A stretch of DNA of 55,758 nucleotides, taken from positions 1-55,758 of the forward strand of contig DALYEZ010000001.1 of NCBI GenBank assembly GCA_031972295.1. The letters run 5' to 3'. This document shows positions 1,458 to 51,635 of the stretch, in pieces. The stretch's first letter is position 1; every line of letters starts with the position of its first letter. Under the pieces are notes generated by a model. The model did not search any database and had not been told where the DNA came from. It was given only the letters and a program-made list of their open reading frames with translations. The position numbers and the translations under genes are program-made. This DNA is from Minisyncoccota bacterium (GTDB taxonomy: Bacteria > Patescibacteriota > Minisyncoccia > Phycocordibacterales > UBA5272).

Positions 1458-3371
1458 GTGAAAAAAAATCTAAACATCACAACGCACAAAACTTTTCTCA
1501 TTGTTTGGATTGTCAGCATCGTTTTTTTTACGTGGGTTCTCCATTGGAATATATTTCAAAACATAAATAATATTTTCTTTGACCCACTTACTACAGGTAC
1601 CGAACGAAAAGATGTGGTTATTGTTGGTATTGATGAAAAAAGCTTGGCGCGTTACGGCGCTTTTCCGTGGGATAGGGATATTTACGCAAACCTCCTTACT
1701 TCACTTGATGGGTACAATCCACGTGTGATTGGTTTTGATATTTTGTTTGCTGAGTCGCGAGCGGGTGATGAAGTGCTTAAAAATATACTTCGTACCATGA
1801 AGACCGATGTCGTTTTTGCAACGAAGGTAGAAGAAGATGCATACATTTCGTCTTTGTATGGTGGTATTTCACCTCGTGTTCATGAAGGAGTGGTGAATGT
1901 TTTTCCTGACAACGATGCTAAGGTGCGCTCAGTCCAAAATTATTTTCTATACAACAAAGAATGTTTACCGTCGTTTTCAAAAAAGATTCTCTCTGTTGCT
2001 ACAAAAATGAGTGAGTATGTGCCAGGGAAGTGTGATACTAAGCAGAAACTTTTCCGGTATCAGGAAAATATTCAAAAAATATCATTTGTTGATGTTGTTG
2101 ATAAAGACATTCCGCTTGAAATGCTTCGAGATAAAATCATTCTTGTTGGATTTGCTACCACTGATCTTGAACAAGATTCATTCTTTGGACTTTTAGGAAG
2201 TAAGATTAATGGAGTTGAAATTCATGCAAGTGCGATTGCGCACAATCTCAATAATGTCCGATTAGTATCTGTTCCAAACTATGTGACACTTTTAGCAAAT
2301 ATTATTTTTGCATTCTTGATAGCTTTCCTTCCTTTTTTCATTAAACGTTTTTCTACACAAATAATTATTCTTGTTCTTGTTGCAGCTGCGACATTCTTTG
2401 GTGCGATTATTGGCTATGAATATGGCTATAAAACGTATGTGCCATGGGCAGTAGGGCTCCCACTTTTTTCGTACGGACTCAGTCTTCTGTATTCCTATGT
2501 GACTAATGTTCGGAAAAATGAATATCTCAAAAAGGTCTTCGGCACGTATGTGCACCCGTCGCTTTTGGAGGAACTTATCAGTGATCCAGCAAAGCTTAAA
2601 CTTGGTGGCGAAAAACGCTATATGACCGTGCTTTTTTCTGACATTCGTGGGTTCACCACTTTCTCGGAAAAACTTTCACCAGAGGGGCTTGTGGACCTTT
2701 TAAATGATTATTTAAACACCATGTCACCGCTTGTTTTGGAACGGCGAGGCACAATCGACAAGTATATTGGGGACGCGATTATGGCATTTTGGAATGCACC
2801 CGTGGCTACAGAAAATCATGAGCTTTTAGCGGTTGAGACAGCACTTGCTATGCAGGAAGCATTAGTTGCATTTAATAAAGAAAAGGCAGATGCAAATGGC
2901 ATGAAGCTTGGCATTGGTATTGGAATCAATAGTGGAGAAATGGTGGTGGGAAATATGGGAAGCGATGCGCGCTTTAATTACACCATTATGGGAGACGCGG
3001 TAAACACAGGCTCTCGTTTCGAAGGGCTGACCAAAAAATATGGCGTTGTAACTATAGTGGGTGAGTCCACGCGAAACGCTATTACGGACGATAAAATTCT
3101 TTTCCGTAAGCTCGATGTGATGACGGTAAAAGGAAAAAGTGAGCCAACAACTATTTATGAGCCGCTTCGAGCAAGTGACTCTATGCGAGAGTTTGTAAAA
3201 AACTATGAGTCTGGTTTTGATGCGTATATCAAAGGTGATTTTGAAACAGCGAAGAAATATTTGGAAACTCTAGCAGCACATGGTGATGAGCCGTCAAAAA
3301 TGCTTCTTGAGCGCATGAAGACCATTGACCTTGCAAGTTGGAAAGGTGTGTGGAAATGGGACGAAAAATAA
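1458..3371 (+). CDS. CHASE2-domain class III adenylate/guanylate cyclase
   Basis: GTG start; TM, CHASE2 motifs (VVIVGIDEKSL, FPWDR, VIGFDILF, GVEIHA), 3 TMs, cyclase core LFSDIRGFT / IDKYIGDAIMAFW / NYTIMGDAVNTGSRFEG. Confidence 0.95.
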   Translation: MKKNLNITTHKTFLIVWIVSIVFFTWVLHWNIFQNINNIFFDPLTTGTERKDVVIVGIDEKSLARYGAFPWDRDIYANLLTSLDGYNPRVIGFDILFAESRAGDEVLKNILRTMKTDVVFATKVEEDAYISSLYGGISPRVHEGVVNVFPDNDAKVRSVQNYFLYNKECLPSFSKKILSVATKMSEYVPGKCDTKQKLFRYQENIQKISFVDVVDKDIPLEMLRDKIILVGFATTDLEQDSFFGLLGSKINGVEIHASAIAHNLNNVRLVSVPNYVTLLANIIFAFLIAFLPFFIKRFSTQIIILVLVAAATFFGAIIGYEYGYKTYVPWAVGLPLFSYGLSLLYSYVTNVRKNEYLKKVFGTYVHPSLLEELISDPAKLKLGGEKRYMTVLFSDIRGFTTFSEKLSPEGLVDLLNDYLNTMSPLVLERRGTIDKYIGDAIMAFWNAPVATENHELLAVETALAMQEALVAFNKEKADANGMKLGIGIGINSGEMVVGNMGSDARFNYTIMGDAVNTGSRFEGLTKKYGVVTIVGESTRNAITDDKILFRKLDVMTVKGKSEPTTIYEPLRASDSMREFVKNYESGFDAYIKGDFETAKKYLETLAAHGDEPSKMLLERMKTIDLASWKGVWKWDEK

Positions 3372-27173: not shown

Positions 27174-27193
27174 AATAAATTCTAAACTCAATC

Positions 27194-27231
27194 ATCCAGC
27201 TCGCAACTGTCTTTTTTGTTGCGAGTCGGAT
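27194..27231. terminator. Hairpin between convergent genes (probable terminator)
   Basis: ctcgcaac/gttgcgag stem extended by atcc/ggat; no clean U tail. Confidence 0.5.
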
Positions 27232-27247
27232 AAATTTAAATAGCGGA

Positions 27248-27859: not shown

Positions 27860-30800
27860 ATGGCACGCGTTCAAAAAACCGCAACAAAAACGGTAACTAA
27901 AAAGGCATCGAGTATTCCTGCTACATATGATCCTAAAAAAATAGAACCCATTCTTCAAAAAAAATGGGAAAAAGAAAAACCATTTAAAGCGCTTGCAAGT
28001 GGTAAGACAAAAAAGAAACCTTTTTATGTGCTATCAATGATTCCGTATCCATCAGGAATAGGACTCCATATAGGTCATCCGCGAAGCTACACTGCAACAG
28101 ACATTGTGGCACGTAAAAAAAGAATGGAAGGATTTAATGTCTTAAATCCAATGGGCTACGATGCATTCGGACTGCCTGCCGAGCAATTTGCAATACAGAA
28201 CCAAGTGCACCCCAAGAAAGCTGTCGCAATAAATGTTAAAACTTTTGAAGGACAGCTCAAAAGACTAGGATTTTCTTTCGATTGGGATAGAAAAATAAAC
28301 ACAACAGACCCTGGGTATTACAAATGGACGCAATGGATATTCTTGAAGCTTTACAATTCGTATTACGATACAAATAAAAAGAAAGCACTTTCTATTGATG
28401 AGCTTGTAAAGATTTTTGAGAAAAAAGGAAATCAAAGTATTAATGCTTTTATATCTGATCAAGTTTCTAACTTTACTAAAGATGATTGGAAGAAAATGTC
28501 TCCGTTGCAAAAGCAAGAGGTATTAATGAAGTACCGTCTTGCGTATGAGGGCGTTGCTCAAGTCAATTGGTGTGAAGCACTTGGGACTGTGCTTGCTAAC
28601 GATGAGGTTGTTGATAGTAAAGAGGGGCCTGTATCAGAGCGTGGCGGGTACCCAGTAACAAAGAAGAATGTTCGGCAGTGGTTTTTGCGAATCACTGCGT
28701 ATGCTGACCGACTTTTGTCTGGCTTAGATACGATTGCTTGGCCAAACCACATAAAGGAAATAGAAAAAAATTGGATTGGGAAAAGTGAGGGGGCTGAAAT
28801 ACTATTTAATCTTAATGTACCAGGTCAAGCTGAGGGTAAACATTCAGTAACTGTGTTTACTACTCGACCGGACACACTTTTGGGCGTAACATTTCTTGCG
28901 GTTTCAGCGGAGCTTGCACAAACGTGGCTTAATGTTGGCTGGCAGACAACTGGAGATGTTAAGGAGTATATAGAAAATGTTATTAAGGATCATGAAAAGA
29001 GTGATTTTGATGCATCGAAAGAAAAAACAGGAATTTTTACCCAGATATTTGCCACACATCCCGGAACACAAGAGAAGATTCCTGTTTGGATTGCGAATTA
29101 TGTTCTTCCTGGATATGGTACAGGCGCAATAATGGGAGTGCCAGCACACGATGAACGAGATTATGAATTTGCTCAAACGTATAATCTTCCTATCAAGAAT
29201 GTTATCGACCCAATTTTTGTTCGTGCTGACGTAAAAGATGCTACAAACTTTACTCCAAAAAATAAAATTGTCGCTCTTGTTGAAGCTCCTGACGGCAAGG
29301 TATTAACCATAAACTGGGGCTCAGCACTTGGTGGGCGGCTTCTTGTTGGTGGGACAATCGAAAATGGTGAACAGCCAGGTGAGACAGCATTACGTGAACT
29401 ACAAGAAGAAACAGGTTATTGTAATGGACAGGTTATTTCTGTTGGTGAAGAAATATTTGATTACAAATACTTTGCAACTTCTAAAAATACAGCACACCAA
29501 GCCTTTACTCGTTTCGTACATATAAAACTTAAAGATCTTGAAAATAAAGGTGATGCGCTTGAAGATAATGAGAAAGGTAAATTCAAAGTTGAGTGGATAC
29601 CGAAAGAGCAAGCCAAAAAAGAAATTGTTGAGGTGTTGCATGTATATGCTTTGGAGAAGTTTGGATATAATCTACCGTTTTCTGGCGAAGGTATTGTTGC
29701 TCGATCAGGCGTATTTTCTGGACTCACTTCCGTCCAGGCAAAAAAAGAAATTACAAAATCAGTTGGAGGTAAACTCGTCACTCGATACAAAATGCGTGAT
29801 GCTATTTTTGCTCGACAGCGCTACTGGGGTGAGCCGGTGCCACTCTTTAAAGACAAGGAAGGAATTATTCATGAAGTAAAAAAACTTCCTCTCGCGCTTC
29901 CAAATACAACCTCATATGAACCAACAGGAACCGGCGAAGGTCCGCTCGCAAATATTACCTCTTGGAAAAAAGCTGGCTATGAAACAAACACTATGCCAGG
30001 TTGGGCGGGATCAAGTTGGTATTATTTACGGTATATGGATGCACAAAACAAAAAAGTTTTTGCAGATCCAAAAGAAATAAAATATTGGAACCAAGTAAAT
30101 GTGTATCTAGGTGGAGCGGAGCACGCGACAGGCCACCTTTTGTATGCTCGTTTTTGGCACAAGGTTTTAAAGGATTATGGATTAGTGCCAACAGAAGAAC
30201 CTTTTAAGCAGTTTGTTGCGCATGGTTTGATTCTGGCCTCAGATGGACGAAAAATAAGTAAACGTTGGGGGAATGGAATAAGCCCGGATGAAGTTGTTGC
30301 AACATATGGGGCAGACACCACTCGTCTTTATATTGCCTTCATGGGTCCGTACACTGAATCTATTCCGTGGTCAGACGAAAGTATTATTGGTTGTCGGCGC
30401 TTCATTGAGCGTTTGTATAAGAAAGCCCAGTCTGCTCTAAATGAAAAAGTTTCAACGAGTGATGCTGTTGCCGAAAAAGCAATTCATAAACTTATCGATA
30501 AAGTAACAAAAGATATTGAAAGTTATAGCTTCAATACTGCTGTTGCTAAGGCTATGGAAACAATGAATATAATTGATAGTTGTAAAGTCTCAGTAAAAGA
30601 TTTTTCACTCATGCTTCAAGTGCTTAATCCATTTATTCCACATGTGACAGAATACTTATTCAAAGAGTGTGGCAACAAGGAGGGAATACACACAAGCTCT
30701 TGGCCAAAAGCGAACAAAAAGCTTCTTATTGACGATGAAATTACCATCGGCGTTCAAGTAAATGGAAAACTTCGAGGAACCATCACCGTACCCACTAATT

Positions 30801-30928
30801 CTCTCGAAAATGTAGTCAAAAAGGCTGCCCTAAATGAAGATAATGTGTTAAAATATTTGGAGGGAAAAGAGGTGATAAAGGTGGTTTATGTGCCAAATCG
30901 CATTATAAACATCGTTATTAAGCCATGA
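27860..30928 (+). CDS. leuS: Leucine--tRNA ligase with inserted Nudix hydrolase domain
   Basis: PYPSG.GLHIGH, CP1 FTTRPDT / GTGAIMGVPAHDERD, RQRYWG, GGAEHA, KISKR, QVNGKLR; Nudix box at 29351-29416. Confidence 0.96.
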   Translation: MARVQKTATKTVTKKASSIPATYDPKKIEPILQKKWEKEKPFKALASGKTKKKPFYVLSMIPYPSGIGLHIGHPRSYTATDIVARKKRMEGFNVLNPMGYDAFGLPAEQFAIQNQVHPKKAVAINVKTFEGQLKRLGFSFDWDRKINTTDPGYYKWTQWIFLKLYNSYYDTNKKKALSIDELVKIFEKKGNQSINAFISDQVSNFTKDDWKKMSPLQKQEVLMKYRLAYEGVAQVNWCEALGTVLANDEVVDSKEGPVSERGGYPVTKKNVRQWFLRITAYADRLLSGLDTIAWPNHIKEIEKNWIGKSEGAEILFNLNVPGQAEGKHSVTVFTTRPDTLLGVTFLAVSAELAQTWLNVGWQTTGDVKEYIENVIKDHEKSDFDASKEKTGIFTQIFATHPGTQEKIPVWIANYVLPGYGTGAIMGVPAHDERDYEFAQTYNLPIKNVIDPIFVRADVKDATNFTPKNKIVALVEAPDGKVLTINWGSALGGRLLVGGTIENGEQPGETALRELQEETGYCNGQVISVGEEIFDYKYFATSKNTAHQAFTRFVHIKLKDLENKGDALEDNEKGKFKVEWIPKEQAKKEIVEVLHVYALEKFGYNLPFSGEGIVARSGVFSGLTSVQAKKEITKSVGGKLVTRYKMRDAIFARQRYWGEPVPLFKDKEGIIHEVKKLPLALPNTTSYEPTGTGEGPLANITSWKKAGYETNTMPGWAGSSWYYLRYMDAQNKKVFADPKEIKYWNQVNVYLGGAEHATGHLLYARFWHKVLKDYGLVPTEEPFKQFVAHGLILASDGRKISKRWGNGISPDEVVATYGADTTRLYIAFMGPYTESIPWSDESIIGCRRFIERLYKKAQSALNEKVSTSDAVAEKAIHKLIDKVTKDIESYSFNTAVAKAMETMNIIDSCKVSVKDFSLMLQVLNPFIPHVTEYLFKECGNKEGIHTSSWPKANKKLLIDDEITIGVQVNGKLRGTITVPTNSLENVVKKAALNEDNVLKYLEGKEVIKVVYVPNRIINIVIKP

Positions 30929-32045: not shown

Positions 32046-33410
32046 ATGAATTACCTCGGGGCAATCATTACGCTATTATTTTTTATTGCACTTTCTGCAG
32101 GACTCGGCATACTCTGGTGGCGACACTGGGTACGACACGTGCAGGCTCAATTCCTAAACTCTATAAAATGGATTTTACTTGAAGTACGTTTACCTCGAGA
32201 TCTTTTTAAGTCACCTCTTGCTATGGAAATGTTTCTCACTTCTTTGCATCAAGGGGGTGGAACAAGTACATGGTATGCAAAATTTTGGGATGGAAAAGTT
32301 CGTAATTGGTTTTCATTAGAAATTGCTTCATTGGAAGGGGATGTGCGTTTCTTTATTCGTACCAATGGTAAGTTTAAAAATGCAATTGAGTCTGCGCTGT
32401 ATGCACAGTATCCAGGAATAGAAATAACAGAAACTGAAGACTACACAAACTATCTTCGTTACGATCCAAAAGAACACGATGTTTGGGGAAACGATTTTGC
32501 CCTAGTAGGTGAAGACGCTATTCCAATACGTACTTACGTAGACTATAAGCTCGACAAAGACCCTAAAGAAGAATTTAAAGTTGACCCAATAGCGCCCCTT
32601 ATTGAATGGATGGGTTCAGTGAAAAAAGGTGAGCAGATCTGGTTTCAGATTATTTGTCGTGCGGTTGATGGAAAGTTTGATACTTGGAAACTAGATGCAC
32701 AAAAAGCGCTGAACAAGATTTATTACGGACTTGAGCTTACAAATGATGAAGTAAAAGAAAAAATAAAAGAAGCGAAGGCTGAACTCGCAGAAGCTCGAAA
32801 AACAGATGATAAGGCTCGGGGGAATGTTCCAGAAGCAAAAAAAGATTCAGATCTCTCATATACAGATAAGCAAAAAGTTGAAGCGATTTATAACAATATT
32901 TCTAAACCTGGCTTCGAGGTGATGATTCGTGTTGCGTATATTGCAGATAAGAAACATTTTGATCCAAGAAATATTGATGCAGCAACAGGGTGTTTACGTC
33001 AATTTGGACATGGAAACTTCAATGGTTTTAGACCAGAAAATACAACGAGCTTCGATTTCCCTTGGGAAGATAGTACGGGAATTAAGTTAATTGGTAAAAA
33101 AGACGAAGCTGTCGCTAAAATTCAAAAACGAAAAGGCTTCTACAAGGCTCATAGCAATGAAGATTGGTATAACGGAATTCCGAGCGGTATACTTCATGAT
33201 GTTTGGGAGGCTTTTAAAATTCGGTTTTTCTCAGTTGATCCGATAAAGGCGTTTAAAAAACCATCTGTAAAAGATGACCCAACTCGTTTTATATTAAATA
33301 CGGAAGAGCTCGCAACGGTATACCATTTCCCTGGACAAGTCTCAGCTGCGCCGTCGCTCAAACGTATTGGATCTACAAAGGCAGAACCACCTATTAATTT
33401 ACCACTCTAA
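32046..33410 (+). CDS. Conserved hypothetical membrane-anchored protein
   Basis: N-terminal TM; WFSLEIAS, ESALYAQYPGIEI, FILNTEELATVYHFP; own TGn-TATAAT box. Confidence 0.75.
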   Translation: MNYLGAIITLLFFIALSAGLGILWWRHWVRHVQAQFLNSIKWILLEVRLPRDLFKSPLAMEMFLTSLHQGGGTSTWYAKFWDGKVRNWFSLEIASLEGDVRFFIRTNGKFKNAIESALYAQYPGIEITETEDYTNYLRYDPKEHDVWGNDFALVGEDAIPIRTYVDYKLDKDPKEEFKVDPIAPLIEWMGSVKKGEQIWFQIICRAVDGKFDTWKLDAQKALNKIYYGLELTNDEVKEKIKEAKAELAEARKTDDKARGNVPEAKKDSDLSYTDKQKVEAIYNNISKPGFEVMIRVAYIADKKHFDPRNIDAATGCLRQFGHGNFNGFRPENTTSFDFPWEDSTGIKLIGKKDEAVAKIQKRKGFYKAHSNEDWYNGIPSGILHDVWEAFKIRFFSVDPIKAFKKPSVKDDPTRFILNTEELATVYHFPGQVSAAPSLKRIGSTKAEPPINLPL

Positions 33411-36895: not shown

Positions 36896-36927
36896 TCACT
36901 GTTATACTCGAGACATAAGACTTGCGT

Positions 36928-38808
36928 ATGAAAACCAACGACGTACGAGCGTTATTTTTGAAGTTTATGGAGAAGAAAGGGCACGTGATTGTGGCTTCGT
37001 CTCCGCTCGTGCCAGAAAATGATCCCACAACTTTGTTTACAGGCTCTGGAATGCAGCCGATGGTACCATACCTTTTAGGGCAAAAGCATCCACTTGGAAC
37101 AAAGATTACTGATTCACAAAAATGTTTCCGCAGTCAGGATATAGAAGAGGTGGGTGACAATCGCCATACGACTTTTTTTGAAATGCTTGGAAACTGGTCG
37201 CTTGGTGATTTTTTTAAGCAAGAACAAATTCCGTGGATGTGGGAATTTTTGACAGAGGAAATTAAACTCGACCACGAACGTCTTTATTTTTCTTGTTTCA
37301 AGGGAAATGAGTCTCTTGGAATTCCAAAAGATACAGAGTCAGCAGAACTTTGGCAAAAACTTTTTAAAACAAAAGGGATTGATGCAAAAATAGGTGAGAA
37401 TCCAGAAGTTGACGGTATACAAGCCGGTGAACGAATTTTTTATTATCCTGAAAAGAAAAATTGGTGGAGTAGATCGGGAGTACCAGGAAATATGCCTGTG
37501 GGTGAGCCAGGTGGACCAGATACTGAGATGTTTTACGATTTCTACCCAGATCTCGGACGAAGCTGTATTCCAAACACAGTCTGGAGTGGCGAATTTTGCC
37601 ACGTAAACTGCGATTGCGGACGTTTTGTGGAGATTGGTAACAATGTCTTCATGGAGTACGTTAAAACAGAAAATGGCTTTGAAAAACTCGCACAGCAAAA
37701 TGTAGACTTTGGCGGTGGACTTGAGCGCATGACTGCAGCAACACAAAATGATGCTGATGTGTTTAATATGGATGTGTTTGATGTTGCAAAAGCAACCATT
37801 GAGCGATTGTCAGGAAAGAAATATGTAGGTGAGGCACAATATGCATTTCGAGTGATTCTTGACCACATTCGAGCCGCAACATTTTTAATAAGTGACGAAG
37901 TACTTCCGGGAAACAAGGATCAAAGTTATTTTGTGCGCCGACTTATTCGGCGGGCGGTGCGTTTTGCCCGCAATCTTGATATTCATACAAACTTTTGTGC
38001 GGAAGTTTCTGACTCATTTATTCAGGTGTATAAAGCTGAGTATACAAATCTTGAAACAAAGAGAGATAATATTTTGAGTGAGATCACAAAAGAAGAAGAA
38101 AAATTTAGAAAGACACTTGAAAATGGAATTAAAGAGTTTGAAAAAATAAAAGAAATAAACATTTCAGGAGAACAAGCCTTTGATCTTTTACAGTCATTTG
38201 GTTTTCCAATTGAACTAACTGAAGAATTAGCAAAAGAAAGAGCTCTGACCGTTGATCGAGCTGAATTCGACAAACTTAAAGATGCTCATGCCGAAAGTTC
38301 GCGCACCGCATCAGCGGGAAAGTTCAAAGGTGGACTAGGGGGAGATGGGGAAATGGAAGTAAAATATCACACTGCAACACACCTACTTCATCAAGCGCTC
38401 CGCGAAGTGCTCGGCGAGCATGTGTTCCAAAAAGGTTCAAACATAACTCCGGAACGTCTCCGTTTTGACTTCTCACACGACACAAAAATGACCGACGAGG
38501 AGAAAAAGAAAGTTGAAGACCTTATTAATTCAAAAATTGTTGCAGATTTGCCAGTCACTCGCGAAGAAGTTTCATTTGAAGAAGCAAAAGCTCGTGGGGC
38601 AATTGGACTTTTTGAAGATAAATATAGTGATGTGGTGAGTATTTATCGTATTGGAGAAGGTAAAAAAAGGGGGGATAGTAATCTCTACTCTATTGAATTC
38701 TGTGGTGGCCCACACGTTGAACATTTAGGACTACTTGGAACATTCAAAATTCAAAAAGAAGAAGCGGTGAGTGCGGGTGTGCGACGTATCAAGGCAGTTT
38801 TACAGTAG
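36928..38808 (+). CDS. alaS: Alanine--tRNA ligase (no C-Ala domain)
   Basis: DPTTLFTGSGM, HTTFFEMLGNWS, DFGGGLER, editing HTATHLLH and CGGPH; ends at GVRRIKAVLQ. Confidence 0.97.
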   Translation: MKTNDVRALFLKFMEKKGHVIVASSPLVPENDPTTLFTGSGMQPMVPYLLGQKHPLGTKITDSQKCFRSQDIEEVGDNRHTTFFEMLGNWSLGDFFKQEQIPWMWEFLTEEIKLDHERLYFSCFKGNESLGIPKDTESAELWQKLFKTKGIDAKIGENPEVDGIQAGERIFYYPEKKNWWSRSGVPGNMPVGEPGGPDTEMFYDFYPDLGRSCIPNTVWSGEFCHVNCDCGRFVEIGNNVFMEYVKTENGFEKLAQQNVDFGGGLERMTAATQNDADVFNMDVFDVAKATIERLSGKKYVGEAQYAFRVILDHIRAATFLISDEVLPGNKDQSYFVRRLIRRAVRFARNLDIHTNFCAEVSDSFIQVYKAEYTNLETKRDNILSEITKEEEKFRKTLENGIKEFEKIKEINISGEQAFDLLQSFGFPIELTEELAKERALTVDRAEFDKLKDAHAESSRTASAGKFKGGLGGDGEMEVKYHTATHLLHQALREVLGEHVFQKGSNITPERLRFDFSHDTKMTDEEKKKVEDLINSKIVADLPVTREEVSFEEAKARGAIGLFEDKYSDVVSIYRIGEGKKRGDSNLYSIEFCGGPHVEHLGLLGTFKIQKEEAVSAGVRRIKAVLQ

Positions 38809-50210: not shown

Positions 50211-51635
50211 ATGAAACGCGTATACATAGGAGGACTTGCACAGCACGCAGATACCGCAGTGTCAATTCAAGGGTGGGTTCATACAAAAAGAAATCAAGGA
50301 AAGATGGTTTTCTTTGAATTTCGTGACATGACAGGAAAAGTGCAGGGAGTTGTCCTTCCAGGCAATGAAAATCTTAAAGCCCAGGCGGACGAACTCCGTG
50401 ACGAGTGTGTCGTAGAAATAACCGGTACAATCAATAAGCGTCCCGAGAAGAATGTGCAGGTTGGGAAGATAAACGGCGATATAGAGATGGTGATCGAGTC
50501 GATTTCTCTTCTCAACAAAGCTGAGGTTCTCCCTTTCCCCATTGCAAGTGATACACGAGAAATTGGCGAAGATGTACGGTTTACGCACCGCTACCTTGAT
50601 TTACGAAGTGAGCGCATGCAACGAAATATTCGCAAACGTGGAGAGGTTTTGCAATTTATTCGTAACTACCTTGCGGAAGAAAAGTTTACTGAAGTTGAAA
50701 CACCACTGCTTACAAAATCAACTCCTGAGGGTGCTCGTGATTTTGTAGTACCTGCACGGCTCTATCCTGGAAGTTTTTATGCGCTTCCACAATCTCCACA
50801 ACAATACAAACAACTTCTGATGACCGCAGGAATTGAACGTTATTTTCAAGTAGCTAAATGTCTTCGAGATGAAGATTCTCGTGGTGACCGTCAGCCAGAA
50901 TTCACACAGCTCGATATGGAAATGAGTTTTGTGAAAAAAGAAGATGTTATGGCATTAAACGAGAAGCTTCTTATTGAGCTTGTTTCGAAACATTATCCTG
51001 AGAAAAAGATTCAGCAAATTCCTTTTCCGCGCATTTCGTATAAAGAGGCAATGGAAAAATATGGAAATGATAGACCTGATATTCGTGAAGATAAAAATGA
51101 CCCAGATCTTTTGGCATTTTGTTGGGTAGTAGATTTCCCATTCTTTGAACGTACTGATAAGTCTGATAACCCTGATACTTTTGGAGACTGGACGTTCACT
51201 CACAATCCATTTTCTCGCCCAGTTTCAGAGCACATGAGTAACCTCATGGAAAAGAAAAACATTGGAGATATCATTACTTCTCAATATGATATTACATTAA
51301 ACGGTTACGAGATTGGTGGTGGAAGTATTCGAAATCATGAAGTAGGAGCACTCATGACTGTTTTTGAAATTCTTGGTTACAAAGAAGAAGAAATAAAAGC
51401 AAACTTCGGACACATGCTTACCGCATTTTCACTTGGCACACCACCTCACGGAGGTATTGCCTGGGGGTTTGATCGCCTCATGATGATTCTCCACAACGAA
51501 GCAAATATTCGTGAAGTTATGGCATTTCCGAAAACAGGCGAAGGAAAAGATCTTATGATGCAATCGCCAAGTACTATTTCAGACAAGCAACTTAAAGAAC
51601 TTTCTCTTGAGCTCAAACTCAAAAAACATGTCTAG
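50211..51635 (+). CDS. aspS: Aspartate--tRNA ligase, bacterial type lacking the GAD domain
   Basis: STPEGARDF, ALPQSPQQYKQLLM, RDED.RGDRQPEFTQLDMEM, NGYEIGGGSIR, PPHGGIAWGFDRL. Confidence 0.96.
   Translation: MKRVYIGGLAQHADTAVSIQGWVHTKRNQGKMVFFEFRDMTGKVQGVVLPGNENLKAQADELRDECVVEITGTINKRPEKNVQVGKINGDIEMVIESISLLNKAEVLPFPIASDTREIGEDVRFTHRYLDLRSERMQRNIRKRGEVLQFIRNYLAEEKFTEVETPLLTKSTPEGARDFVVPARLYPGSFYALPQSPQQYKQLLMTAGIERYFQVAKCLRDEDSRGDRQPEFTQLDMEMSFVKKEDVMALNEKLLIELVSKHYPEKKIQQIPFPRISYKEAMEKYGNDRPDIREDKNDPDLLAFCWVVDFPFFERTDKSDNPDTFGDWTFTHNPFSRPVSEHMSNLMEKKNIGDIITSQYDITLNGYEIGGGSIRNHEVGALMTVFEILGYKEEEIKANFGHMLTAFSLGTPPHGGIAWGFDRLMMILHNEANIREVMAFPKTGEGKDLMMQSPSTISDKQLKELSLELKLKKHV

Follow-up and report, generated by a model that had tools for sequence, protein, structure and literature searches.

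The leucyl-tRNA synthetase (LeuRS) gene of a Minisyncoccota bacterium carries, within the CP1 editing domain, an in-frame insert that is predicted to be a complete Nudix hydrolase domain. The arrangement recurs in many ultra-small bacteria, where the inserted module is conserved in its catalytic residues, readily exchanged, and belongs to a family tied to aminoacyl-tRNA synthetase genes. We tentatively propose that the nested domain acts as a tethered hydrolase on dinucleoside polyphosphates.

Position and integrity of the nested Nudix domain

In the window, i.e., the whole stretch of 55,758 nucleotides analyzed here, leuS is a single frame with zero internal stops. The features referred to in the following are:

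27860..30928, + strand: leuS, bacterial-type leucyl-tRNA synthetase with nested Nudix (1022 aa)
28067..28078, + strand: HIGH motif of the synthetic site (aa 70–73)
28766..29212, + strand: CP1 editing domain, portion 5' of the insert (aa 303–451)
28859..28876, + strand: threonine-rich editing motif TTRPDT (aa 334–339)
29117..29161, + strand: editing-site motif GTGAIMGVPAHDERD, conserved Asp included (aa 420–434)
29213..29674, + strand: nested Nudix hydrolase domain, cassette subtype A (aa 452–605, 154 aa)
29351..29419, + strand: Nudix box GTIENGEQPGETALRELQEETGY, catalytic and metal-binding motif (aa 498–520)
29468..29470, + strand: Y537, aromatic X-loop residue at +17 from the Nudix box, the ApnA-hydrolase marker position
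29594..29596, + strand: W579, Trp kept throughout the Nudix cassette family (65/65 inserts; likewise unchanged in alignment A1)
29675..29794, + strand: CP1 restart, PFSGEGIVARSGVFSGL..., running into the RDAIFARQRYWGEP core strand (aa 606–645)
30251..30265, + strand: KISKR, KMSKS-loop equivalent (aa 798–802)

The encoded LeuRS is of the bacterial type and functional-looking. The whole protein scored 852.6 bits with TIGR00396 (leuS_bact, cut-off 548.4), the match falling into three stretches broken by the insert. For the full-length AF2 model (pLDDT 87.7, pTM 0.77), E. coli LeuRS in the aminoacylation conformation was the top structural match (TM 0.81). H70, G72 and H73 of the HIGH motif are unchanged in 120/120 LeuRS relatives, and nearly all relatives have KMSKR instead of KISKR. 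Relatives with insert (65) and without it (55) keep the TTRPDT motif equally; in the GTG...HDERD segment (aa 420–434), T421, G422, D431, R433 and D434 are unchanged in all 120. Taken over these 120 relatives, editing and synthetic motifs were equally conserved with and without Nudix insert. The original prediction of an otherwise intact synthetase with HIGH and KISKR was hence borne out. It had also described two further synthetases of the window as shortened, which we can confirm: AlaRS has 628 aa and lacks the C-terminal DHHA1 domain, and AspRS has 474 aa and lacks the GAD domain.

Compared with canonical bacterial LeuRS (T. thermophilus 1h3n/2bte; E. coli 4aq7/4arc), the domain order is the same, and HIGH/KMSKS-type motifs as well as a CP1 with T-rich and GTG...D motifs are present. 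In contrast to T. thermophilus (Tt) LeuRS, the leucine-specific domain (Tt 579–638, corresponding to aa 793–799) is missing, and about 58 residues are added at aa 167–225.

The insertion site is a variable loop at the surface of CP1, and the last part of this domain restarts 3' of the insert. Residues 303–451 match positions 1–150 of 185 of the PF13603 profile (E 2e-53) and align with Tt LeuRS up to residue 363; from aa 606 on, the alignment resumes at Tt residue 378. The Nudix insert stands in place of the 14-residue loop of Tt LeuRS between these points (Tt 363–378). The consensus GxGxLxNSGxFxGL 3' of the site is kept in relatives with and without insert. The original prediction had placed the insert after the end of CP1, which was wrong: both the Tt alignment and PF13603 show that CP1 continues past it. 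Its limits, given as 29205–29680, came within a few bases of the in-frame span 29213–29674 but were out of frame. As anticipated, about 150 residues, precisely 154, separate NLPIKNVIDP (aa 442–451, 29183–29212), which directly precedes the insert, from PFSGEGIV, which directly follows it (aa 606, nt 29675).

Pfam NUDIX (PF00293) matched the insert alone with 51.2 bits (E 1.7e-13) and in its context with 46.3 bits, at a cut-off of 21.1. The complete Nudix box that had been predicted is present: GTIENGEQPGETALRELQEETGY fits GX5EX7REUXEEXGU at every specified position, with Tyr as the last residue (U). No second motif of this kind occurs in the window (55.8 kb, all six frames), and shuffled amino-acid sequences yielded approximately none. 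AF2 modeled the excised domain with high confidence (pLDDT 91.6, pTM 0.86) and predicted a helix at insert residues 55–67, spanning the REx2EE portion of the box. A Foldseek search with this model gave 491 PDB matches at E<=0.001; all 50 of the 50 matches listed were Nudix proteins. The insert is thus predicted to be a complete Nudix domain, an alpha/beta/alpha sandwich with its box on a loop-helix-loop, for which we infer a divalent-cation-dependent pyrophosphohydrolase activity.

The unusual protein length, together with an imperfect 11-nt direct repeat at both insert junctions (29180–29190 and 29666–29676), could be taken for the trace of a chimeric assembly, a frameshifted neighboring gene or an intein-like mobile element. 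Against such an artefact stand the continuous ORF, the identical 1022-aa protein in independent JGI, NCBI, ENA and Logan assemblies, and the recurrence of the architecture in 45 reference genomes combined with purifying selection; we give this reading practically no credence. We judged the repeat to be chance or microhomology and not an insertion scar, as by our estimate ~3–10 such pairs are expected per 900 nt. Its downstream 'LP' is native LeuRS, and the repeat is not kept in P0003. A self-excising element was also rejected, since the junctions IDP/IFVRAD and GYNL/PFSG have neither the N-terminal Cys/Ser/Thr nor the C-terminal His-Asn plus Cys/Ser/Thr of inteins, and no Hint or homing-endonuclease Pfam match was obtained.

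Spread, turnover and genomic linkage of the cassettes

A Nudix domain occupies the same CP1 loop in 65 of the best 120 LeuRS relatives and in 45 named reference genomes, i.e., Paceibacteria, Saccharibacteria and some labelled Bacilli or "Tenericutes". The LeuRS::Nudix architecture is common in ultra-small bacteria, including two large Patescibacteria classes. Automatic annotation names these proteins merely 'class I tRNA ligase family protein', and in open-access papers, to which our literature search was confined, we found no description of a Nudix domain nested in LeuRS CP1. Searched by itself against 5.8 billion proteins, the insert had no homology matches at E<=1e-3. We attribute this to word seeding and database size and not to a lack of relatives, as these were found by full-length and profile searches.

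A box that is not kept among orthologs had been named as counter-evidence in the original prediction, and this was not what we found: the catalytic residues are near-invariant in the 65 insert-bearing clusters, being kept in 61–65 of them (G498 65, E504 61, R512 61, E513 65, E516 64, E517 65, G519 64), and a strict Nudix box is found in 43/43 reference-genome loci, while the inserts are otherwise about 20–30% identical. At +17, Tyr or Phe occurs in 62/65 inserts and in 37 of the 44 boxes of reference loci. Degenerate boxes were seen in a few lineages (P0027, P0030, P0073, P0099, P0045). The insert has a dN/dS of 0.072 and the remaining LeuRS one of 0.074; purifying selection on the insert is as strong as on the rest of the protein. 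Since its catalytic residues are conserved and dN/dS is low, the nested domain is apparently catalytic, although this support is indirect.

The cassette arrangement is widespread, modular and highly dynamic, with the module swapped or lost very often. At one fully syntenic leuS locus, orthologs that are 78–89% identical have three unrelated Nudix cassettes (A, B and C, 21–26% identical) or none, and we hence conclude that the module is autonomous and that LeuRS can dispense with it. Sister LeuRS with 93–100% identical flanks have the insert cleanly present or absent. Insert and core have diverged together between the window and P0002 (92% and 89% identity, respectively), whereas P0024 and P0083 share 91% identity in the core but 21% in the insert. 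This contrast and the sharp boundaries led us to reject a single ancestral insert that diverged fast; non-orthologous cassettes substitute for each other within about 10–20% LeuRS divergence. Around Nudix-free leuS orthologs, no free-standing compensating Nudix was found within 6 kb. Across relatives, the insertion loop accommodates 0 to >300 extra residues; in P0008 it has 8 residues (ISDEEEKL). LeuRS relatives also house Ham1/ITPase, HAD, alpha/beta-hydrolase and ASCH domains at two further sites; an ASCH domain, of RNA-binding type, is located at site 1 of the P0047 LeuRS.

The Nudix family in ultra-small prokaryotes is specifically tied to aminoacyl-tRNA synthetase genes, and generally so, because free copies precede leuS, valS and alaS and one relative is nested in a DPANN ProRS. 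Free-standing relatives precede valS by 4 nt, an uninterrupted leuS by 2 nt, a leuS::Nudix by 1 nt and alaS by 96 nt; ThyX, dUTPase and dCMP deaminase are encoded at the alaS locus as well. In a small neighborhood sample (n=7), picked by similarity and extent of contig, 4/7 lay directly upstream of a synthetase gene and 5/7 adjoined one, at a random expectation of 2–3% per gene by rough estimate. The two without synthetase neighbor were located near UDG or other Nudix genes. Free-standing relatives are labelled 'MutT (NUDIX family)' by JGI. Every host tested among the best-ranked representative matches was LeuRS or a LeuRS fragment, and 92/149 matches overall were LeuRS-linked. Nesting is very common in LeuRS and rare in ProRS (DPANN).

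Substrate class and possible roles

Assignment to a Nudix subfamily was tried by PDB sequence search, fold search and NCBIfam, and gave generic resemblance only, leaning towards the RppH/ApnA type. No Nudix subfamily model reached its curated cut-off (RppH model 20.5 bits vs 116). Below cut-off, among 43 inserts, RppH models matched 38, the YtkD RNA pyrophosphohydrolase model 31 and MutT models 15. The insert of the window is hence RppH/ApnA-like and not a member of these curated families. Fold matches did not separate subfamilies either, with 2azw, AvrM14, ADPRase, NudI, RppH and Ap4A hydrolase all at TM 0.6–0.7. The Enterococcus faecalis MutT/Nudix protein 2azw was the top match by profile (E 1.8e-12) as well as by fold (E 3.9e-9, TM 0.69/0.72), both over nearly the full length; yet it is 19% identical to the insert and a free-standing structural-genomics protein without assigned function.

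The closest likenesses by sequence and structure included RppH/NudH of E. coli and the Nudix Ap4A hydrolases of Aquifex (aq_158, 3i7u), lupin (1f3y) and Chlamydia (CT771, 4ilq). With these, the insert shares the full Nudix box, the ~150-aa alpha/beta/alpha fold and an X-loop aromatic about 17 residues past the box. However, identity is only 13–24%, and they are free-standing whereas the present domain is nested in frame. A conserved X-loop Tyr about 17 residues past the Nudix motif marks ApnA hydrolases (Dunn et al. 1999, cited in PMC5389931). Y537 lies at exactly this position, although the marker is weak and non-exclusive. ADP-ribose pyrophosphatases are marked by a Pro about 16 residues past the box, and NADH diphosphatases (NudC) by the array SQPWPFPxS past the box (PMC6856373). 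Neither is found in the insert, where +15, +16 and +17 are Y535, K536 and Y537, and none of the 44 reference boxes has a Pro at +15 or +16. The closest resemblance, i.e., the RppH/ApnA-type likeness with an aromatic residue at +17, would favour a dinucleoside-polyphosphate hydrolase of the Ap4A type.

Aminoacyl-tRNA synthetases form Ap4A from aminoacyl-AMP and ATP. We propose, at a probability of roughly 0.45, that the nested Nudix is an active, tethered and independent hydrolase, with Ap4A/Ap3A-type molecules as its likeliest substrates and a place outside aminoacylation and editing. LeuRS, like other synthetases, would make dinucleoside polyphosphates when ATP attacks the aminoacyl-adenylate. 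The tethered Nudix would cleave these adenine-containing products and give back ATP or ADP together with AMP, and nesting in LeuRS would ensure co-expression and closeness to the dinucleotide source, while the domain itself would stay out of aminoacylation and editing. The Ap4A or RNA-cap hydrolase suggested in the original prediction thus gains support from the linkage to synthetases, the RppH/ApnA-type likeness and the +17 aromatic, but in substrate class it remains a matter of resemblance, with no curated threshold reached. The pre-transfer editing aid that it also considered, or any other role that LeuRS requires, appears unlikely: syntenic orthologs do without the insert or have an unrelated Nudix, and the editing motifs are equal either way.

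Several observations speak against the Ap4A reading. Subfamily models stayed below their cut-offs, fold matches did not separate subfamilies, the +17 marker is weak, a few lineages have degenerate boxes, and the neighborhood sample is small. The other LeuRS-borne domains, i.e., Ham1/ITPase, HAD, alpha/beta-hydrolase and ASCH, are not Ap4A enzymes, and a house-cleaning theme may fit them at least as well; moreover, the insert-free close relatives manage without a free copy in the vicinity. The Nudix might therefore sanitize the nucleotide pool, removing oxidised or deaminated NTPs or other NDP-X without a mechanistic tie to aminoacylation, and use LeuRS as an essential, constitutively expressed carrier whose loops tolerate inserts, in genomes with few genes. 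Several unrelated small hydrolases gathered at three LeuRS loops, the interchangeability and dispensability of the cassettes, the MutT label of the free-standing relatives, the two of seven found near UDG or other Nudix genes, and the nucleotide-metabolism neighbors of the alaS-linked copy are all in line with such a hitch-hiker. It is harder to reconcile with hosts that are so predominantly LeuRS, with free copies directly upstream of synthetase genes well above the rough expectation, and with MutT models matching fewer inserts than RppH models. We regard this as a serious but doubtful alternative. An enzyme for RNA ends, rather improbable in our view, would be an RppH-like Nudix on the domain that docks the acceptor end, removing 5' triphosphates, Np4A or NAD caps, or pyrophosphate-type adducts at the tRNA 3' CCA. 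CP1 of LeuRS binds the tRNA CCA end, and this is where the insertion sites are located; RppH and YtkD are the curated models that the inserts match most often, the fold search ranked RppH and AvrM14, a decapping effector, near the top, and P0047 has its ASCH domain at site 1. Yet all family matches fall far under their cut-offs, mature tRNA has a 5' monophosphate, free-standing copies exist, and the free exchange of unrelated cassettes argues against an exact geometry to bound tRNA.

The extremely patchy distribution and the replacement of cassettes between close orthologs would also suit a conflict or resistance module, in which the cassettes detoxify nucleotide-like synthetase inhibitors such as aminoacyl-adenylate mimics, or undo toxin-made modifications, and turnover reflects an arms race. 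Several hydrolase chemistries gather on one target enzyme, and adenylate-mimic toxins are known to target LeuRS, as in the TM84 complex 3zgz, which is itself a fold match. But insert dN/dS is as low as that of LeuRS, with diversifying selection not seen; toxin, immunity and defence genes are absent from the window and the syntenic loci; and Nudix enzymes cleave pyrophosphate bonds and are not known to attack the acyl-phosphate or phosphoramidate bonds by which known adenylate mimics are linked. We consider this explanation quite improbable for the domain. In a broader version, which is speculative and to which we likewise assign a low probability, LeuRS of ultra-small CPR/DPANN symbionts, and less often another of their synthetases, would serve as a platform at whose fixed CP1 loops hydrolase cassettes (Nudix, Ham1, HAD, alpha/beta-hydrolase, ASCH) are quickly acquired, swapped and lost as counter-measures against nucleotide-type inhibitors or toxin adducts at the tRNA acceptor end. 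If true, the translation apparatus would have a built-in layer of defence or repair at the domain level that has so far gone unrecognised. Least probable among these roles is a non-catalytic one, in which the appended Nudix fold would provide structure, binding or regulation, e.g., as a nucleotide sensor or interaction surface. A degenerate-box domain is indeed retained in P0027, P0030/P0073, P0099 and P0045, and Nudix domains without enzymatic role are known (PMC5389931). The perfect box in the window and the retention of the catalytic Glu and Arg in >93% of the 65 clusters and in 43/43 reference loci, with the rest ~20% identical, weigh against it.

Related systems and implications

IleRS with a GNAT domain, listed in NCBIfam as a curated exception model (NF040702), is likewise a housekeeping synthetase with an extra enzymatic domain that aminoacylation does not require, although synthetase, domain chemistry and topology all differ from LeuRS::Nudix. 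LysRS makes Ap4A and NUDT2 degrades it, as separate proteins. The proposed logic would be the same here, i.e., a Nudix hydrolase clearing a synthetase side product; however, LysRS and NUDT2 are separate gene products, whereas here one polypeptide or one operon combines the two functions, with the Ap4A activity being our assumption.

The architecture of bacterial synthetases is usually seen as frozen. In the present case, an essential synthetase has a second, apparently active enzyme in its proofreading domain. The pattern of fusion, nesting and operon arrangement over LeuRS, ProRS, ValRS and AlaRS suggests a Rosetta-stone-type clue to a coupling of Nudix activity and aminoacylation in organisms with minimal metabolism. 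The physiological handling of synthetase-made Ap4A, long debated, becomes testable with one recombinant protein. The one orthologous locus with three cassettes or none amounts to a natural experiment on how domains are inserted into, and replaced within, an essential gene, which informs CP1 engineering, and the wide length tolerance of the loop bears on LeuRS-targeted inhibitors and on annotation rules.

Position and integrity of the Nudix domain in LeuRS

The window encodes a bacterial-type LeuRS (TIGR00396, 852.6 bits; cut-off 548.4) in which the Pfam LeuRS editing domain PF13603 was matched with E 2e-53 and the HIGH and KISKR motifs are in place, as had been read from the sequence.

Features of the window leuS (aa, residues of the window LeuRS)
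27860–30928, + strand: leuS, bacterial-type LeuRS, single unbroken ORF of 1022 aa
aa 70–73: HIGH
aa 798–802: KISKR
29213–29674, + strand: Nudix insert, 154 residues, flanked by NLPIKNVIDP (aa 442–451) and PFSGEGIV (from aa 606)
29351–29419, + strand: complete Nudix box GTIENGEQPGETALRELQEETGY, aa 498–520

The insert scored 51.2 bits with Pfam NUDIX (cut-off 21.1), and its box is the sole instance of the type in all six frames of the window, with about zero in shuffles. The unbroken ORF and the NUDIX match uphold the original prediction of a Nudix domain within LeuRS, and the box matches in full; the predicted location after the end of the CP1 editing domain, however, has to be corrected. The Pfam editing profile is broken at position 150 of 185; in a relative without the Nudix it is covered from 1 to 185 without a break. 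Aligned with T. thermophilus LeuRS (Tt), window residues 450 and 608 correspond to Tt 363 and 378. The split profile and this alignment show that the Nudix domain sits inside CP1, where it substitutes for a short loop.

From 43 aligned inserts, the isolated domain was predicted to have Nudix-type secondary structure, at pLDDT 91.6 and pTM 0.86. It remained well ordered in the full-length model (pLDDT 87.7, pTM 0.77), whose LeuRS scaffold superposed with TM 0.81 on the aminoacylation conformation of E. coli LeuRS. Against L007, the closest reference genome (a Candidatus Paceibacteria MAG, LeuRS 88% identical to the window's), dN/dS was 0.072 for the insert and 0.074 for the remainder of LeuRS. 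Moreover, the identical protein of 1022 aa is encoded in assemblies from JGI, NCBI, ENA and Logan that are independent of each other. Fold models, dN/dS and independent assemblies thus rule out both an error of assembly and a domain in decay, and we consider the probability of any artefact negligible.

Compared with Tt, the window LeuRS is longer by about 58 residues behind the first Rossmann-fold half (aa 167–225, nt 28358–28534), an extension that its relatives share. It lacks the leucine-specific domain (Tt 579–638; spot at aa 793–799, nt about 30236–30256), and in the ZN1 region, with the alignment read by eye, a single Cys faces C..C...C..H of Tt. An imperfect 11-nt direct repeat, TATAATCTTCC at 29180–29190 and TATAATCTACC at 29666–29676, encodes YNLP in both copies, which are 486 nt apart, one near the upstream and the other at the downstream cassette junction. 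We judge it to be chance or microhomology, though its position is curious.

Spread and exchange of the cassettes

An insert of 136–166 aa occupies exactly this loop in 65 of the 120 best LeuRS relatives; insert-free relatives have 0–36 residues there, with P0116 (88 aa) as sole exception. The box residues are near-invariant in the 65 inserts (G498 65, E504 61, R512 61, E513 65, E516 64, E517 65, G519 64), W579 is present in all of them, and identity in the remainder of the domain falls to about 20–30%. Five of the 65 insert-bearing clusters have degenerate boxes. Independently of this set, two subtype-A peptides were used as queries on species-representative genomes and gave 45 loci, every one ordered LeuRS-N, Nudix, LeuRS-C, with a strict box in 43/43 loci spanning the box region. 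A lack of box conservation among orthologs, which would have spoken against the original prediction, was hence not borne out. The loci are labeled Paceibacteria/Paceibacterota, Saccharibacteria (about 25) and, for some, Bacilli, 'Tenericutes', Clostridium sp. CAG:417 or Bacillota MAGs; two of the taxon labels are probably due to mis-binning.

Relatives with the insert conserve TTRxDT and GTG...HDxRD (CP1 editing), HIGH and KMSKR to the same degree as those that lack it. In a LeuRS tree built on 810 core columns, insert-bearing and insert-free proteins are intermixed as far as sister pairs, and insert distance hardly correlates with core distance (Spearman 0.18).

Identities of LeuRS core and insert in pairs of relatives (P, clusters of relatives)
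Pair; core; insert
Window, P0002; 89%; 92%
Window, P0005; 83%; 21%
Window, P0006; 80%; 24%
P0024, P0083; 91%; 21%
P0090, P0103; 89%; 23%
Window, P0024; 56%; 63%

In sliding windows the flanks were 0.9–1.0 identical and the drop, with sharp edges, was confined to the cassette and about 25 residues downstream; clean presence/absence pairs exist at 93–100% flank identity. Around leuS the genes run DsbA, two genes of 80 and 163 aa, YchF, a small gene that varies, DUF948 (minus strand), leuS, sigma70_r4/HARE-HTH, DUF8128, YceG, RNase_T, MnmA. This order is the same in the window (cassette A, its Nudix subtype), in the loci L057 and L058 (unrelated Nudix cassettes B and C, respectively) and in L001, L055 and L056 (no cassette), with core LeuRS identities of 0.78–0.89 among the six. 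One syntenic locus with A, B, C or none rules out differing divergence rates as cause of the differences. The cassettes have been repeatedly replaced, gained or lost, for which recombination via the conserved flanks would be the obvious route.

Just upstream of leuS, the slot that separates ychF from DUF948 (minus strand) varies, and the two genes downstream of leuS are kept in all syntenic relatives.

Slot contents and other genes of the window
27174–27247, window: slot empty
L001: His_Phos_1 phosphatase, 180 aa
L057: AAA_33 kinase-like gene, 204 aa
L058: ORF, 128 aa
L056: ORF, 55 aa
30985–32016: Sigma70_r4 + HARE-HTH protein, 343 aa, directly downstream of leuS
32046–33410: DUF8128 protein, 454 aa, next gene
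36922–38808: AlaRS, 628 aa, tRNA-synt_2c + tRNA_SAD, without C-terminal DHHA1/C-Ala domain
50211–51635: AspRS, 474 aa, OB fold + core, without GAD insertion
1458–3371: CHASE2 sensor + adenylate/guanylate cyclase catalytic domain protein, 637 aa

AlaRS and AspRS are short forms, in agreement with the domain losses noted earlier. The CHASE2-cyclase protein represents cyclic-nucleotide signaling within a small Patescibacteria genome.

Further inserted domains and free-standing relatives

Longer LeuRS relatives carry other domains at three sites, and as many as three Nudix domains per LeuRS (P0122, P0129, P0149, L014). Several site-1 inserts of about 130–200 aa (P0024, P0083, P0077) had no Pfam match.

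Inserted domains in LeuRS relatives
Site 1, CP1 start: Ham1/ITPase (P0026); HAD, weak (P0038); ASCH (P0047); alpha/beta-hydrolase, Ser_hydrolase (P0048, P0123, P0137); another Nudix (P0135, P0142, P0146)
Site 2, loop of the window Nudix: tandem Nudix domains (P0054)
Site 3, after RQRYWG: HAD (P0024); second Nudix (P0047)

A profile of subtype-A inserts gave 756 matches at E<=1e-3 among 1.84 billion representatives; among the best 149, 92 are whole or fragmentary LeuRS, while free-standing proteins of 130–210 aa number about 40. Gene context was usable for seven free-standing relatives.

Surroundings of free-standing Nudix proteins
P0128: 4 nt upstream of valS
P0167: 2 nt upstream of leuS with uninterrupted editing domain, two assemblies
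P0173: locus syntenic with the window, 1 nt upstream of leuS with its own nested Nudix
P0182: 96 nt upstream of alaS, locus L052:1-4477 (GCA_964448295.1)
P0170: ProRS two genes away, with a Nudix nested between its anticodon-binding and C-terminal domains
P0187, P0189: no synthetase nearby

Four of the seven, a small and non-random sample, thus lie directly upstream of a synthetase gene, far above the 2–3% roughly estimated from about 20 synthetase genes per 700–1000 genes. ProRS::Nudix (L004:2762-4690, Logan SRR28285656; 643 aa, ProRS-C_1 type, Nudix at aa 418–515) is rare, with the nested domain in 5/120 closest ProRS clusters, and its relatives are labeled Nanoarchaeota/Woesearchaeota. L004 has a second, free-standing Nudix two genes upstream.

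Possible function of the nested domain

LeuRS, ValRS, AlaRS and ProRS share a chemistry of ATP, aminoacyl-adenylate and an Ap4A-type side reaction. The window domain reached none of the curated Nudix subfamily models and its fold matches were generic. RppH models were matched by 38/43 inserts, and the best sequence and structure matches include the Ap4A hydrolases 3i7u, 1f3y and 4ilq as well as RppH. X-loop position +17 (Y537 in the window) is aromatic in 62/65 inserts; according to PMC5389931, a Tyr at this place marks ApnA hydrolases. Neither the Pro at +16 of ADPRases nor the NADH motif (markers from PMC6856373) occurs in the window insert. Sequence and models therefore lean toward RppH/ApnA-type enzymes.

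We tentatively favor an autonomous, tethered ApnA-type hydrolase (probability roughly 0.45), which would remove by-products of the synthetase. A generic house-cleaning hitch-hiker, in line with the Ham1 and HAD domains found in LeuRS relatives, is rather unlikely; the nucleotide-metabolism cluster at L052, where the Nudix gene upstream of alaS neighbors another gene of this kind as well as ThyX, dUTPase and dCMP deaminase, would also fit it. An enzyme acting on RNA or tRNA ends seems improbable. Still less credit is given to a conflict or resistance module, against which speak the low dN/dS and a context free of defence genes, and we see very little room for a non-catalytic role.

Public sequence databases, with their precomputed Pfam matches, already display the LeuRS::Nudix architecture, and we found no description in the open-access literature of a Nudix nested in LeuRS, of the cassette dynamics or of a Nudix-synthetase linkage. 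At NCBI, LeuRS with a Nudix go under the name 'class I tRNA ligase family protein' instead of leucine--tRNA ligase (P0025, P0037, P0061, P0065, P0068, P0105, P0277; one of them binned as 'Nitrospira sp.'); apparently, the insert defeats the naming rule. LeuRS and Nudix are both already well known as families, and the nesting of one in the other is relevant to researchers on synthetases, on Nudix enzymes and on CPR/DPANN organisms.
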